Positions 2,855 to 46,699 of a stretch of DNA of 64,000 bases are shown here, piece by piece (position 1 is the stretch's first letter; each line of letters begins with the position of its first letter). Made by a program: the position numbers and the translations under genes. This DNA comes from a phage. The notes below the pieces were generated by a model that was not told where the DNA came from, ran no database searches, and was given only the letters and a program-made list of their open reading frames with translations. The stretch lies in sequence record NC_101842.1, one strand, 5' to 3'.

Positions 2855-4064
2855 CTCTTCAGGTCTGTGTGGGAAAAGCCAACCTCTCCGGCGGGGCATG
2901 GGGTCATGACGGGAAAATTGCAGGTCAATTAAAAAATTTACGTGGTGTATGAAGCGCTCTTCAGGTAAGGCATGTATTATGGGATGAAACCCTCTTCAGG
3001 CAATGATATTTGTGGGTGTGATATTTGCTGGAAAGCCAGATATGACGGGACTCCCGGCGGGGCAGGGGTAGTACAGACAGGGAAAATATGGAGGATGTGG
3101 TTGGGTAAATTGATCAGGCAGGTAGAGTATGGAATATGTTACAGGTATGTTAAATAGGGAGGCTGAATATCTGTAGGATTTGTGTGTAAAATCAAAGACT
3201 TAAGTGGTGTTGTGGTATTTTCTATAAATAATTCAAGTTTAATAGGTAATATTTGTCTCTATTCGCTTTGTGTGGTAAACAGATTCAGATGAGATTGGTT
3301 TACAAGTGTATACATAATATACAAATTAAAGATACAAGAAACCCCCCTCCCCCTTCGGCTACCATTCACCTTTTCCTCTGACTGGTACTTAAACACTTAT
3401 TCAGACTCTTCAGGTTATCACCCATATATCATATGGCAGTGACTGGTGTCCTCCGGCCCCTCTTTCGTCACCCGTCCGCTTCGCCATGCTAATGCCATAG
3501 CCAATGGTTCGGTTGTTCACCCTGCTCACTCAGGTGTATCTCCATACCCCTTCAAACCGAAGAGAACAGAAAACCCGAATTACTCGGTAAAAGAAAAGAG
3601 AAGAACTTAATTTTATCAGGATAGGCAAGAATGTCAAGGCATGACTGCTCACTAAACAAGCAAACAGTCATGTGTGGGAGGTAAGTGATTGTGGTGGTGG
3701 GAAATTTAGTTGAAAGATGTGCTACAGGTGCGCTTCCAGCACTTTAGCAGGGCAGCTAATTGTGTGTCAGTCCAGCGGTTCATCCTCTACTTCACTGAAA
3801 TCAATGTTCATGGTCTCTTCCCAACCATCGATCTCAGCACAAGAGTGGAGTTCTTTAGGACTTACTCCCAAAGCATCAGCAACAGAGTCCATATTTAACA
3901 CCTCTGGCAGGTATGATTCATCGAATTCAAGGTAAATCAGGCCACGAGTGTTGTCAGCTCCACCAAATATTTCTATCTTCATGAAATCTCCTCTGGAAAT
4001 GAGAGTGTGAACAGGGTTTTATACGTTCCGATGCACAGGAATTATGCACGTTTGCCTCTTCAGG
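2855..4064. repeat. dispersed 9-mer CTCTTCAGG (5 copies) plus duplicated CCGGCGGGGCA(T)GGGG block
   Basis: CTCTTCAGG at 2855, 2957, 2992, 3406, 4056; ccggcggggcatgggg at about 2886 and ccggcggggcagggg at about 3052. Confidence 0.65.
3767..3982 (-). CDS. hypothetical small acidic protein (71 aa)
   Basis: ORF track; N-terminus MKIEIFGG resembles other MK(I/V)E(I/L) small proteins in the array. Confidence 0.4.
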   Translation of the reverse strand: MKIEIFGGADNTRGLIYLEFDESYLPEVLNMDSVADALGVSPKELHSCAEIDGWEETMNIDFSEVEDEPLD

Positions 4065-4103
4065 TCATGCTTTAGCATGAGGAACCTGTGTGGGCTCGGT
4101 GCT

Positions 4104-4316
4104 TCATAGTCTACCACCCCTGAACTCTTCGTGCTCAGGCATAATAGAGAACCAGATATCTACGATGTCCTCCCACGTCAGGTCATCAGCCTCAGGATCT
4201 GTCTGGGACGAAGATGAAGAGTCCTCAGAATATAAGTTTTCCTCTTTAACTGGCTCATCCAAGGGACATATGGTCACTCCTTCGGATGTCTCTTCAGATA
4301 CATGTGTGTTGATCAT
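4104..4316 (-). CDS. hypothetical small acidic protein (70 aa)
   Basis: ORF track; very acidic, Ser-rich. Confidence 0.35.
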   Translation of the reverse strand: MINTHVSEETSEGVTICPLDEPVKEENLYSEDSSSSSQTDPEADDLTWEDIVDIWFSIMPEHEEFRGGRL

Positions 4317-7763: not shown

Positions 7764-8159
7764 TTACTGAAACAGTGCGGATAAATTACCTTCTGGTGGG
7801 AACTTATCTGCCAAAAACGGTGTTAGCACAGTAGCCTTCTGAAGATCTGGGGTCCACTCGTTGTTCAGAACATCCCAGTAGTACGCAATGTTGCTGTGTG
7901 GGTGCCGCATTACGAACTTTTTCCCTTCGTAGTCGTCTGAAACCTCTACAGAAGAAATAACAACAGAATCTTCAAGGGTTTCTTCATAGAAAGATCCCCC
8001 TTCAAATTTCCAACGAGATGCAAGAGCCCCTGCCTTGAACGCTGCAGATAACGGACTGTCGGCAAGAACATACATTTCTTGCACTCTGTCGCTGCGATCT
8101 TTGCTTCTTACGTTGTATACAGTATCTGAGCTATACTCAACACGGTATAGGCTTACCAT
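7764..8159 (-). CDS. hypothetical protein (131 aa), paralogue of 9966-10364
   Basis: shared motif HP(H/D)S..YYW/HYW....(E/K)TWTP with ORF 9966-10364. Confidence 0.5.
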   Translation of the reverse strand: MVSLYRVEYSSDTVYNVRSKDRSDRVQEMYVLADSPLSAAFKAGALASRWKFEGGSFYEETLEDSVVISSVEVSDDYEGKKFVMRHPHSNIAYYWDVLNNEWTPDLQKATVLTPFLADKFPPEGNLSALFQ

Positions 8160-8518
8160 TACCGCACCTCCTCAATAACTTCCACATCTGAACCTACCAC
8201 AAATGCAAAAGGACAGGTTTCATGAAAGACATCTGGATCGCCGCCAAGCTTGCTAACAATCTCTCCACCACTAATAAACACAAGCTCACCGATATTCATC
8301 AGATTGCTGAAATAGTACCCATAATGATTAAAGAATGCAGCAGGGTCAGGTAGACTGGTAGCCTCAAGCACTACATCGGTTGAGGTTACTTTCTTATCAT
8401 AACCTCTCGCCTTTTGAGATGCAAGATCTGCAGAATCCTCAGGAGACCGGAGATGCACAGGAATTGTTTCACCAATAAAGCGTACTTTCATATTATCACC
8501 CAACAACCATAGCTTCAA
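8159..8518 (-). CDS. hypothetical small protein (119 aa), member of MK(V/L)-...VEVIEE family
   Basis: C-terminal GSDVEVIEE resembles GSDADIVEL and GEDVEIVED of ORFs 10377-10631 and 10621-10848. Confidence 0.5.
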   Translation of the reverse strand: MKLWLLGDNMKVRFIGETIPVHLRSPEDSADLASQKARGYDKKVTSTDVVLEATSLPDPAAFFNHYGYYFSNLMNIGELVFISGGEIVSKLGGDPDVFHETCPFAFVVGSDVEVIEEVR

Positions 8519-8759
8519 AAGGAGTCATGAACGAATAAACGGCATCATCATCTGCTTCAGGGAATGCTCCCAAAGACTTCATATCTGAACCCTTGACAAA
8601 TACAAGGTTTTGATCAAAGGCTTCTTGGGGGTCAATCCGATACATATTTCGTAGAATATCGCTTACCTCCTCATCAAGAGGTGAGTATGCTGTGCACGTT
8701 TTTCCGATCAAGCTTTGAGAATCAGGGTATCCACCTGAAGTTTTAAAATAAACAATCAT
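8496..8759 (-). CDS. hypothetical small protein (87 aa)
   Basis: ORF track; overlaps upstream ORF by 23 nt. Confidence 0.4.
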   Translation of the reverse strand: MIVYFKTSGGYPDSQSLIGKTCTAYSPLDEEVSDILRNMYRIDPQEAFDQNLVFVKGSDMKSLGAFPEADDDAVYSFMTPFEAMVVG

Positions 8760-9120: not shown

Positions 9121-9257
9121 TTAGAGGTCTCCTCAATTATTTGATATTAATAGCCGTAACCTAACACATTAACTACAACTGCGATTGCAAACATAATTTC
9201 AAAGCATGCAATCTCTACATTTGGGACTAATTTCTTAATCACACCCATTGTAGCACC

Positions 9258-9575
9258 TCATTCTCCAAAGTCAATCTTTACTTTGCCTTTCCCCTTACCT
9301 TTCTTTCCACCGCATTTAGCCAGCTGACGTGCTGCAACATCTACCATACGGTCAGTTGCCTCGTAAGCATCACTACCTTTAGCCTTGGCAATAACTTCTT
9401 TTCCAGAATTGTCAAAAATGAACGCCATAACTTCCTGGTGATCATTTTCAACTTTTACACTCACACGTGCATAGTTGGCAGAGGGGTGCAAACGCTCCAG
9501 TTTAGACATTTTGTTGGAAATGAAAGACACCATACCTTCAGTGATTTCTACGTTGCCAGTGATTTCAATTTGCAT
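9258..9575 (-). CDS. hpf: ribosome hibernation promoting factor / RaiA (YfiA) family homologue
   Basis: MQIEITGNVEIT...KLE...VSVKVE...KAKGSDAYEATDRMVDVAARQL aligns along its length with E. coli HPF (MQLNITGNNVEIT...KLEQY...VVLKVEK...SAEGQDMYAAIDGLIDKLARQL); Lys/Gly-rich C-tail. Confidence 0.75.
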   Translation of the reverse strand: MQIEITGNVEITEGMVSFISNKMSKLERLHPSANYARVSVKVENDHQEVMAFIFDNSGKEVIAKAKGSDAYEATDRMVDVAARQLAKCGGKKGKGKGKVKIDFGE

Positions 9576-9657
9576 AACGTGTTCCTTTTAAAGAAGAGGG
9601 AACCAAACCCTCTTTGAAAACAATGATACTAAATCTGAAGCGTTGTGTCAACAGTTT

Positions 9658-9948
9658 TTACAGATTGTTGTCGATAGTTTTTAAAATATCCACAGCAAGA
9701 TCTGCCATTTTTCGAACATACTCTGCAAACTCAACAGGATCCTTGATCAAAGAATTCACAGGGTCGTACCCTAGAGCGTTCAAAATGGCTGCAGCATCTA
9801 CAACCTTCTCATCATTTGCGAAGATCTCTCCATCAAACTTGTAGGTCCATTTTGAGTCAATCTTGGCAGGGAAGGATTGGTCAACGCTTGTTACACCATC
9901 CTTTTTAAACGCTCCGGTGTTATCAGTGTCCAGAACTAAATCCATCAT
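9658..9948 (-). CDS. hypothetical protein (96 aa)
   Basis: ORF track. Confidence 0.45.
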   Translation of the reverse strand: MMDLVLDTDNTGAFKKDGVTSVDQSFPAKIDSKWTYKFDGEIFANDEKVVDAAAILNALGYDPVNSLIKDPVEFAEYVRKMADLAVDILKTIDNNL

Positions 9949-9965: not shown

Positions 9966-10364
9966 TCAGTTTAGCTTTTCTTCAACAACCCCATAGCTCG
10001 GGACAGAGTCAAGAGCTTTCTGGTTTAAAAGTGGTGTAGCAGAATCTGCAAACGGTGTCCAAGTTTTTGTTCTGGCATTCCAGTAATGCTTCACTCTGGA
10101 ATCTGGATGCACTATAACAAAAACTTTTTCACTTGTCAACACATTAATTTCTTCTACACCCTTGCTGATAATTTCTCCGTCATAGCCCCCAGTCTGGTAT
10201 CCTTCGTACCAGGTTCTTGCATAGGCATAGCCAGCTTGCCAGCATGCAGCCTCCTCCGAGGTGGAGACTACGTAGAAGTCTTTCTCAAATTCTGGAATAC
10301 GCCCTTGCTTTATGCTCCAAGCTCCGCGAATTTTCATTGTAACTTTGAACAGTTTATTTTTCAC
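9966..10364 (-). CDS. hypothetical protein (132 aa), paralogue of 7764-8159
   Basis: shared HPDS..HYW....TWTP motif. Confidence 0.5.
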   Translation of the reverse strand: MKNKLFKVTMKIRGAWSIKQGRIPEFEKDFYVVSTSEEAACWQAGYAYARTWYEGYQTGGYDGEIISKGVEEINVLTSEKVFVIVHPDSRVKHYWNARTKTWTPFADSATPLLNQKALDSVPSYGVVEEKLN

Positions 10365-10376
10365 AACGGTTACCCA

Positions 10377-10631
10377 TCACAGCTCTACAATATCTGCATC
10401 TGACCCTACCCCAAAGGCATAATAGGACTCTTCCCCGAAATAATATTCAGGTGCACCAGCGGTGATCAGGTCTGCTCCTAAGATAAACACTACGTTGTGG
10501 CCTACATAACTGTGATGTTGCCGAACAGGATCATCCCACGGCAACCCTTCAAAGTATACCGCAGGAACGACCTTTCCCTTCAGGAAGGATTGTCCCAAGT
10601 AGACGTTAGAATCAAGAATTTTAACCTTCAT
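10377..10631 (-). CDS. hypothetical small protein (84 aa), MKVKILDS family
   Basis: near-identical N-terminus pattern to 10621-10848 (MMKVKVLDSSFYIGQ) and 14279-14512. Confidence 0.5.
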   Translation of the reverse strand: MKVKILDSNVYLGQSFLKGKVVPAVYFEGLPWDDPVRQHHSYVGHNVVFILGADLITAGAPEYYFGEESYYAFGVGSDADIVEL

Positions 10632-10848
10632 GATTGTCCTCCACTATCTCTACATCCTCACCTAGGGCAAAGTTGTAGGTCCACTGACTGTCAAAGCATT
10701 CCTGAGATGCACCAGCGGCAATAAGATCTGCCCCTTTTATTTTTAAAAGGTCGGGGTAATCTTCGTTAGGGACAGCAGTAAACACTTTCCCCACTAAGGG
10801 CTCCTGACCAATATAGAAGCTTGAATCTAAAACTTTAACTTTCATCAA
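10621..10848 (-). CDS. hypothetical small protein (75 aa), MKVKVLDS family
   Basis: paralogue of 10377-10631. Confidence 0.5.
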   Translation of the reverse strand: MMKVKVLDSSFYIGQEPLVGKVFTAVPNEDYPDLLKIKGADLIAAGASQECFDSQWTYNFALGEDVEIVEDNHEG

Positions 10849-45886: not shown

Positions 45887-45961
45887 GCCCTGTTAGCTTA
45901 GTGGATAAAGCAGCGGCCTTCTAAGCCGTTGACACTGGTTCGAGTCCAGTACGGGGTGCCA
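45887..45961 (+). tRNA. tRNA-Arg (anticodon TCT)
   Basis: hand-folded cloverleaf: acceptor gccctgt/acggggt, anticodon loop cttctaa, T-loop ttcgagt, encoded CCA. Confidence 0.7.
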
Positions 45962-45965
45962 AATT

Positions 45966-46052
45966 GGGGAGTTATCCCGTAGGGGTAGCGGTGTAGACTG
46001 TAAATCTATTGTCATTGCGACTCGGGTGGTTCGACTCCACCACTCCCCACCA
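45966..46052 (+). tRNA. tRNA-Tyr (anticodon GTA), long variable arm
   Basis: acceptor ggggagt/actcccc, anticodon loop ctgtaaa, T-loop ttcgact, encoded CCA. Confidence 0.75.
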
Positions 46053-46166
46053 AATTTATAGTTTTAAATGCATAAATCATACAGATAATGGCATTGATAT
46101 TTATCGTCGTTTATACTAGTCACTAACTGCTCGAAAATCAGTGTCATTATTAGTATTGTTTATAAA

Positions 46167-46257
46167 TGAGGGTAGGGAGCAATGGTGCTCAAGCGGTCTT
46201 GAAAACCGTCCCGTTGAGGATGACTTGATGATGGTTCGATTCCATTACCCTCAGCCA
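46167..46257 (+). tRNA. tRNA-Ser (anticodon TGA), long variable arm
   Basis: acceptor tgagggt/accctca, 3-bp D stem, anticodon loop cttgaaa, T-loop ttcgatt, discriminator G, encoded CCA. Confidence 0.65.
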
Positions 46258-46355
46258 TATTGTTGACCTTGTAATTAAGCGAAAGCCGGAAGCAGAACCG
46301 GATTATCAAATGTTACAGTCGTCATCGCCGACTAGCAACATGGTCAACATACTGA

Positions 46356-46452
46356 GCTAGGTAAGCCCTTTGGCAAGGGCGAGGATTTTTAATCCTGAAA
46401 ATAGACGAGGTAGTCGTTGAATACATAGGTGGTTCGATTCCATCACCTAGCA
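46356..46452 (+). tRNA. atypical tRNA-like element (97 nt)
   Basis: perfect 7-bp acceptor gctaggt/acctagc, canonical T-arm, D-arm-like hairpin, but irregular anticodon arm and about 29-nt variable region; no CCA. Confidence 0.4.
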
Positions 46453-46459
46453 CCTTTTT

Positions 46460-46535
46460 GCTGATGTAGCACAATTGGTAGTGCAATTGATTTGTAATCA
46501 ATAGGTTGCAGGTTCAAGTCCTGCCATCAGCACCA
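46460..46535 (+). tRNA. tRNA-Thr (anticodon TGT)
   Basis: acceptor gctgatg/catcagc, anticodon loop tttgtaa, T-loop ttcaagt, encoded CCA. Confidence 0.75.
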
Positions 46536-46536
46536 T

Positions 46537-46611
46537 GGCCCTGTAGCTGGAAGGTTCAAGCAAGCGACTCATAATCGCCAGACGGTGGTTCAATTCCACC
46601 CAGGGCCACCA
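46537..46611 (+). tRNA. tRNA-Met or tRNA-Ile2 (anticodon CAT), elongator type
   Basis: acceptor ggccctg/cagggcc with G1-C72, anticodon loop ctcataa, T-loop ttcaatt, encoded CCA. Confidence 0.65.
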
Positions 46612-46622
46612 AATAATAAATA

Positions 46623-46699
46623 CTCCGCGTAGCTCAGCTTGGTAGAGCGCCTGATTTGGGATCAGGAGGTCGAGTGTTCGAATCACTCCGTGGAGACCA
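46623..46699 (+). tRNA. tRNA-Pro (anticodon TGG)
   Basis: C1-G72 start, D-loop agcttggta, anticodon loop tttggga, T-loop ttcgaat, encoded CCA. Confidence 0.75.

Follow-up and report, generated by a model that had tools for sequence, protein, structure and literature searches.

A Vequintavirus homologue of the short ribosome hibernation factor HPF, diverged at conserved basic positions and extended by a Lys/Gly-rich tail

Bacterial hibernation factors of the HPF family dock in the A/P-site channel of vacant 30S and 70S ribosomes. The short HPF of E. coli (YhbH; structures 2rql, 4v8h and 6h4n; NCBIfam NF007780) consists of a single S30AE domain. RaiA (YfiA or protein Y; 1n3g, 4v8i) has the same fold with a C-terminal extension, which reaches the site of RMF and prevents 100S formation (PMC7913689), and the long HPFs of Gram-positives, Thermus and cyanobacteria, like plastid PSRP1, place a homologous N-terminal domain at the same 30S site. 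These factors also shield 16S rRNA from YbeY and RNase R (PMC7913689). Phages can carry a member of the family as well: Mizuno et al. (2019; Nat Commun 10:752, PMC6375957) described the 105-residue protein ABI79209 of phage rV5 and five close relatives as virus-encoded HPF, reported the Pfam domain and grouped the rV5 protein with gammaproteobacterial HPFs in a tree. Here we analyse the gene at positions 9258–9575 on the minus strand of a 64,000-nucleotide stretch of the phage sequence record NC_101842.1 (hereafter the window). It is the Vequintavirus (rV5-like) homologue of bacterial short HPF, a single S30AE domain with the HPF fold. The gene was already annotated in GenBank and published in 2019; what is added here is an estimate of selection, an account of the basic residues that have been kept and lost, the placement of a 5' hairpin and a re-reading of the published ribosome test.

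The product divides into a folded core and a basic tail, and the reading frame is as the first-pass annotation of the window had given it:

9258–9575, minus strand: coding sequence of the HPF homologue, 105 amino acids with ATG start and TGA stop (open reading frame list; Pfam, NCBIfam and PDB matches)
9312–9575, minus strand: core S30AE/HPF domain, residues 1–88 (AlphaFold2 model with predicted local distance difference test score, pLDDT, of 80–94; Foldseek; Pfam)
9261–9311, minus strand: Lys/Gly-rich C-terminal tail, residues 89–105 (pLDDT; composition)

The first-pass annotation had assigned the protein to the HPF/RaiA family and named a profile search as the check. That search gave a significant match to PF02482, Ribosomal_S30AE (E 1.1e-12; 48.9 bits, gathering score 23.7), in which residues 3–88 cover profile positions 1–83 of 88, and the HPF/YfiA family model TIGR00741 was passed with 46.1 bits (cutoff 40.9). 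Both curated thresholds for membership of the superfamily are thus exceeded, and phmmer against the PDB and Foldseek bear out the identification. The narrower equivalog models were not reached: NF007780, for short HPF, was the best-scoring NCBIfam model at 56.2 bits (cutoff 125), and NF007654, for RaiA/YfiA, gave 18.2 bits (cutoff 158). By these comparisons, the phage protein is closer to HPF than to RaiA. The top phmmer matches in the PDB were E. coli HPF (2rql, 4v8h and 6h4n; E ~6e-12 to 3e-11), with residues 1–89 aligned to 1–89, whereas RaiA came up only at E 0.17; the identities are 40% to HPF and 21% to RaiA. With the tblastn values of 42–44% included, identity to E. coli HPF is about 40–44% over residues 1–89. 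The earlier observation on the gene is borne out in each of its main points.

An AlphaFold2 model built from a 49-sequence alignment (mean pLDDT 82.9) shows the beta-alpha-beta-beta-beta-alpha order that the S30AE fold demands, with a strand at residues 2–7, a helix at 13–29, strands at 33–43, 46–55 and 60–67, and a second helix at 70–89. Searched against the PDB with Foldseek, the model returned 37 matches at E <= 1e-3, all of them structures of HPF, RaiA, pY, PSRP1 or related hibernation factors, with 8uu4, 5njt and 5mmj representing the long HPF and PSRP1 type. The best was V. cholerae HPF (4hei; root-mean-square deviation 0.9 Å), and E. coli HPF taken from the 100S structure (6h4n_x) superposed with a template modelling (TM) score of 0.90 at 41% identity; deviations ranged from 0.9 to 1.1 Å, or about 1 Å for the E. 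coli protein. Since a C-terminal dimerisation domain is lacking, 100S formation by the route of the long HPFs is impossible for the phage protein.

The likeness to E. coli HPF begins with the N-terminus, MQ(I/L)xITG, and ends with helix 2, which is terminated by a Gly-Gly pair after C88. The tail starts there (residues 89–105, GGKKGKGKGKVKIDFGE); it had been recognised in the first-pass annotation as Lys/Gly-rich, and does hold 6 Lys and 6 Gly in its 17 residues. Disorder is predicted for it, with pLDDT below 50 at residues 91–105. Short HPFs typically finish at ~95 residues with a basic K-x-K-x-K...H ending that touches E-tRNA and h23, KHKDKLKQH in E. coli, whereas the phage protein has GG and the 17-residue Lys/Gly tail. 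The extension of RaiA is comparable in length, but it is mixed and acidic, and the two tails are unrelated in sequence.

The residues with which HPF contacts the ribosome have been described in electron cryo-microscopy preprints on E. coli, Enterobacter and Pseudomonas ribosomes. The strictly conserved basic contacts K80, R83, K87, K89 and K91 lie on helix 2, in its second half; K26 and Q29 touch phosphates near m3U1498, T53 and position 62 touch m2G966, H55 and E60 touch the C-terminus of uS9, R33 and K93 touch the E-site tRNA, and H95 stacks on G693. We compared these positions in a family alignment of 135 members, in which proteobacterial short HPFs dominate, so that the percentages are upper bounds for the superfamily. 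Nine positions are Lys or Arg in at least 94% of the members, and six of them are kept in the phage protein: K22, K25, R28, R83, K87 and K91, corresponding to K23, K26, Q29, R83, K87 and K91 of E. coli HPF, with which E60 is also shared. The other three, conserved at 94–99% in this sample, are lost (R17 to V16, K80 to V80 and K89 to G89). T53 is replaced by F52, R33 by S32 and D51, a Glu in most of the sample, by M50; H55 is lost as well, one alignment pairing it with F54 and another with D55, and nothing in the phage protein corresponds to the C-terminal K93 and H95 of E. coli HPF. The residues that determine the fold, G7, T12, D69, Y71 and D75, are kept. Because three such highly conserved basic residues have gone, the phage protein is no plain copy of the host factor. 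A homologue from a second phage lineage (P0004, described below) has lost the same three basic positions, with V16, T80 and S89 in their place; the losses are thus older than the divergence of the two lineages and have been maintained ever after.

Selection on the gene was estimated pairwise by the Nei-Gojobori method among five Vequintavirus alleles. The ratio of non-synonymous to synonymous rates (dN/dS) is 0.03–0.09, with dS up to 0.6, and the gene is under strong purifying selection; none of the related genomes that were retrieved lacks it. P0004 is a 103-residue homologue with 64% identity that is encoded in synteny, between homologues of the same neighbours, on metagenomic contigs of 124–137 kb whose flanking DNA is 73–80% like that of Vequintavirus over about one third of its length. 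The contigs concerned (L002–L005) are an uncultured sister lineage of Vequintavirus. Their individual lengths are given as 15.7–125.8 kb, with 136.8 kb for the longest of the cluster, and the P0004 gene lies at 4001–4312; one source calls P0004 an E. coli protein. Synonymous sites differ so often between the two phage lineages that the distance correction yields no value. The gene has a G+C content of 42.1%, matching the 43.0% of the phage.

Cellular relatives are distant. An exhaustive phmmer search of 1.84 billion representative proteins gave 24 matches at E <= 1e-3, of which P0004 alone fell below 1e-10, and the closest cellular relatives were HPFs of the Enterobacterales type at ~40–45% identity. 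A word-indexed search with the single protein retrieved 5 matches, all phage; the bacterial relatives needed full HMMER and profile searches. One phmmer match, P0006 (1160 residues, 8 matched stretches), was set aside as spurious, being a low-complexity repeat protein. A recent transfer from the host is disfavoured by the 40–44% identity, by a dS between the lineages that lies beyond correction and by a base composition that is like the phage and unlike the host. The gene is an old, selected resident of this phage group rather than a recent pick-up, as judged from the selection, the presence of P0004 in the sister lineage, the ameliorated base composition and the distance of the cellular relatives.

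These observations also dispose of the notion that the gene is a passenger, a captured host gene without function that is decaying in a hyperplastic early region. Dozens of small accessory genes with no known function do surround it, and its tail is frameshifted in two records, but the dN/dS values already effectively refute decay, the reading frame is intact across 117 rV5-like records, the orthologue in the sister lineage is intact at 64% identity, the promoter and Shine-Dalgarno sequence are conserved and the base composition is fully ameliorated. We regard this explanation as scarcely credible. The two frameshifts, in phages APECc02 (L008) and Murica (L009), are 1-nucleotide indels within the tail's coding sequence, in its purine run GGGG/AAAG, equivalent to ~9275–9290 of the window (columns ~396–401 of alignment A1). 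They give shorter, different C-termini, as also found at the end of protein cluster P0003, and may be sequencing errors. In P0004 the tail has another sequence and is again basic. Elsewhere in the protein, one additional Asn in the subgroup of V18 and Murica brings back a GNNVEIT like that of E. coli.

Upstream of the coding sequence, three elements can be placed:

9651 to 9623, minus strand: sigma-70-type promoter TTGACA-17-TATCAT, 11 of 12 consensus positions (promoter scan)
9594–9614, minus strand: hairpin AAGAGGG-TTTGGTT-CCCTCTT, perfect 7-bp stem, 7-nt loop, -9.9 kcal/mol (folding)
9583–9587, minus strand: Shine-Dalgarno sequence AAGGA, seven nucleotides before the ATG (sequence reading)

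The promoter lies in the 82-nt gap between the stop codon of the upstream gene (9658–9660) and the ATG. Across 8 aligned loci, among them the divergent L002, its -35 box and the bases beside it do not vary, and in rV5 (DQ832317) the same site is annotated as 'Sigma70-type promoter; P144'; in the Murica record, a ribosome-binding site is annotated at the place equivalent to the AAGGA. In E. coli HPF, by comparison, expression is under stationary-phase control, whereas the phage gene has a constitutive-type sigma-70 promoter in the early region of the phage. The gene belongs to a long run of small minus-strand genes, of unknown function, whose intergenic gaps hold several near-consensus sigma-70 promoters. 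An early array of small genes had been reported in the first-pass annotation, and the setting seen here fits an early region transcribed by host polymerase.

The hairpin lies 8 nt downstream of the -10 box, between it and the Shine-Dalgarno sequence. Since the promoter is upstream, the hairpin is an element of the 5' untranslated region of the gene's own transcript, besides being intercistronic, and the transcript is predicted to start at or within ~4 nt of the foot of the stem, at about 9614–9618. An intercistronic hairpin had been rightly noted before, but it lies at 9594–9614 and not at about 9578–9612, and its stability does not go beyond chance: against shuffled sequence z is -0.87, and 40 of 200 shuffles were at least as stable. 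In V18, Murica and DrSchubert an A/C mismatch weakens the stem, in Aya the hairpin is stronger, and L002 lacks it; no compensatory changes were found among the aligned loci, and there was no Rfam match. A conserved structured RNA is not supported on these grounds. An intrinsic terminator is rejected, as only three U follow the stem, the site was not flagged in a terminator scan and it is downstream of the promoter. In E. coli mRNA decay, a 5'-terminal stem-loop guards against 5'-end-dependent attack by RNase E, and by analogy the hairpin could protect the phage mRNA. A second promoter-like site at 9274 to 9247 on the minus strand (TTGACT-16-TACAAT, 10 of 12, with an upstream TG) is unlikely to drive the next reading frame, because its -10 box overlaps the ATG of that frame. 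It also runs over the final codons of the HPF gene (…KIDFGE*); it is probably there by chance, and could constrain the C-terminal codons.

The sole published ribosome test was made with the rV5 protein (PMC6375957), which is of equal length and 99% identical to the window protein, differing in one residue (N21H). It was made from pBAD24 in E. coli NM522, the cells were harvested at an optical density (OD600) of 1 and ribosomes were pelleted through a cushion with 0.5 M NH4Cl. By mass spectrometry the protein was present in the crude extract and not in purified 70S or 100S ribosomes, the 100S peak was unchanged upon expression, and the authors proposed that the protein might compete with cellular HPF so that translation is kept going. 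We re-read the supplementary tables of that study for the host's own factors. Cells expressing the phage protein had host RaiA, HPF and RMF in their crude extract (Supplementary Data 5), yet neither HPF nor RMF of the host is listed for any of the three washed-ribosome preparations (Supplementary Data 2, 3 and 4). As the washed-ribosome assay misses even the short HPF of the host, the absence of its phage homologue says little on ribosome binding. The published negative is weak, lacks a working positive control for a short HPF and cannot count as evidence against binding to the ribosome.

RaiA behaves otherwise in these tables, being detectable in salt-washed ribosomes where the phage protein is not. 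In the two control expressions it was recorded with 2 peptides and 6 spectra (bL12 sample) and with 1 spectrum (bS21 sample), but it is not among the 71 proteins listed for washed ribosomes from cells with the phage HPF, though present in that extract; the depth of the samples is roughly comparable (S14, 6 vs 6 spectra; S15, 8 vs 6). This fits a displacement of RaiA by the phage protein and is a hint of it, taken from a single, unreplicated and post hoc reading.

The same experiment bears on whether the protein is a true hibernation or shut-off factor, one that would bind tightly at the decoding centre, and either store ribosomes of slow-growing hosts as 70S or 100S particles or shut off host translation early. 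The first-pass annotation had suggested a role of this sort, with ribosomes kept storable or translation skewed. Expression to OD 1 altered neither the stability of 70S nor the abundance of 100S, and the protein was absent from washed ribosomes, whereas RaiA can survive the wash. The homology over the full length and a fold identical to that of HPF would suit such a factor, as would R83, K87 and K91, three of the five strictly conserved contacts of helix 2, a lysine-rich tail that could raise affinity for rRNA and an early sigma-70 promoter. However, three basic positions conserved at 94–99% are lost, the score against the HPF equivalog is 56 rather than 125 bits, and a potent early inhibitor would be expected to block the phage's own translation too. 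We consider a tightly binding factor of this kind rather unlikely.

The reading that we prefer, and to which we give an even chance of being right, is that the gene encodes an early-expressed, diverged HPF that binds reversibly in the decoding channel of idle ribosomes and competes there with the hibernation factors of the host. Under this proposal, in which we infer the timing, the binding and its affinity, the path of the tail and the benefit to the phage, host RNA polymerase would transcribe the gene early, yielding an mRNA that starts at the small 5' hairpin. The protein would dock in the A/P-site channel of vacant 30S or 70S ribosomes, as HPF and RaiA do, through K22, K25 and R28 of helix 1 and R83, K87 and K91 of helix 2. 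Because three near-invariant basic contacts and the head contacts of T53 and H55 are lost, weaker binding that gives way to salt would be expected. Weak or competing binding would agree with the absence of the rV5 protein from ribosomes washed in 0.5 M NH4Cl, with the unchanged 100S and with the RaiA counts. The tail, flexible and rich in Lys and Gly, might run along the mRNA path to the platform, the site of the RaiA tail and of RMF. In competition with RaiA and with HPF plus RMF, the protein would leave idle ribosomes shielded and quickly reusable for phage mRNAs, and not locked as 100S.

Several points weigh against this proposal. The one published ribosome test came out negative, and the loss of the three basic residues together with T53 and H55 could mean that ribosome binding has been lost and not weakened. 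The hint that RaiA is displaced comes down to three unreplicated spectral counts, 6, 1 and 0, picked out post hoc. The path proposed for the tail is drawn solely from the tail's length; between the two phage lineages the tail sequence is unconserved beyond its basic character, and the frameshifts in APECc02 and Murica, which may be sequencing errors, alter it further. Early timing is read from the promoter motif only, and no Vequintavirus transcriptome was found in the literature.

The protein might instead have been put to a non-ribosomal use, its dsRNA-binding-like fold and basic tail being retargeted to another nucleic acid or protein, for instance phage or host mRNA, tRNA, a host defence or an RNase component. 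The failure to find it on ribosomes is consistent with this, although that test had no working positive control for a short HPF. The substitutions at contact positions are common to both lineages and under purifying selection, as expected of a derived and stable surface, the tail is new, and the protein has a PHROG of its own (phrog_12469, function label unknown), apart from the annotated S30AE PHROG. Yet six of the nine invariant basic positions are kept along with G7, T12, D69, Y71 and D75, and the neighbouring genes, all of unknown function, hint at no other partner. A non-ribosomal role is in our view unlikely.

The proposal of a reversible, competing HPF can also be taken one step further, to an anti-hibernation decoy. 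Here, the weakened HPF core would sit in the decoding channel while the Lys tail blocks the site of RMF and the RaiA tail, so that RaiA and HPF-RMF are evicted or excluded. Made early, the decoy would keep 100S particles from forming or undo them, and would guard 16S rRNA against YbeY and RNase R; being easily displaced by initiation factors and phage mRNA, it would make starved or stationary-phase cells exploitable by rV5-like phages. We put this forward as a doubtful extension. If it were true, the same three basic losses in two lineages would be adaptation and not decay, and the lack of RaiA on ribosomes of cells with the phage protein would be the first sign of it in an experiment.

The gene is widespread among close relatives of the phage. 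The 2 kb around it are 100% identical to Escherichia phage MaxTheCat (BASEL Bas57, MZ501094.1, genus Vequintavirus) and 97–99% identical to ~100 rV5-like phages. tblastn with the phage protein matched 118 records: 117 rV5-like phages at 93–100% identity and one Salmonella chromosomal contig within the phage set, where the match, at 42% identity, is the bacterium's own HPF. The equivalent in MaxTheCat is bas57_0152, 'ribosome hibernation factor'. The rV5 orthologue, ORF144 (ABI79209 in DQ832317), bears the label 'sigma 54 modulation factor'; it is the same gene in the same position with the same promoter, and there is no difference of substance. Labels across the matched records vary among 'ribosome hibernation factor', 'ribosome hibernation promotion factor S30AE', 'sigma 54 modulation factor' and 'RaiA', the last used in many GenBank records even though the RaiA equivalog cutoff is missed, and the label 'ATP-dependent protease La', placed on the HPF gene in several records, is wrong. 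In APECc02 a neighbour of the HPF gene wrongly bears the label 'sigma 54 modulation factor'. The gene was met again by Mathieu et al. (2020), in five newly isolated rV5-like phages; for the time after 2019, we found no functional work in the full-text literature, only genome notes that repeat the annotation.

HPF-family domains also occur in other large myoviruses and jumbo phages (Cronobacter phage GAP32, AFC21633; Xanthomonas jumbo phage XaC1; phrog_8990). These differ in belonging to another PHROG, were out of reach of tblastn with the phage protein at E <= 1e-5 and are reported to branch elsewhere in the HPF tree (PMC6375957), which suggests separate acquisitions.

Immediately downstream, 10 nt past the HPF stop codon, a hydrophobic reading frame of 33 codons with its own GAGG (9147–9248, minus strand; phrog_15151) is probably co-transcribed with the HPF gene. 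It is annotated in the rV5-like records inspected, and no gene is called there in L002. The ten neighbouring genes had no Pfam match and fell only into PHROGs of unknown function, and no RMF-like gene was found among the 10 that were scanned. Two paralogues of phrog_7379 (131 and 132 residues) flank the HPF gene at 7764–8159 and 9966–10364, and phrog_5009 has three members, one of them weak, at 8496–8759, 10377–10631 and 10621–10848, all on the minus strand; these paralogous neighbours suggest that genes of the early array were duplicated locally. The phage has another feature related to translation, a cluster of seven tRNA genes at 45887–46699 on the plus strand, including Arg-TCT, Tyr-GTA, Ser-TGA, Thr-TGT, Met-CAT and Pro-TGG. 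One of the seven, an odd call of 99 nt with the four-base anticodon 'atcc' at 46356–46454, may be a pseudo-tRNA or bear an insert. The region 40000–64000, with portal, terminase, capsid, sheath and tape measure genes, has its best match in phage I29, at 98.7% and in a single piece.

Copies of translation-machinery parts are rare among phage genes: with E. coli HPF as query, matches were found in just 129 of 50,697 phage records, mostly rV5-like. As the gene itself is already on record, the remaining interest lies in the biology of a phage HPF and in the weakness of the single negative experiment, and the practical value of re-examining it is narrow. The positions that we single out as informative are V16, V80, G89 and the tail at residues 89–105, and BASEL phage Bas57 on E. 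coli K-12 is an available model. Should the decoy idea prove true, it would bear on how phages infect non-growing bacteria, a matter of relevance to phage therapy.

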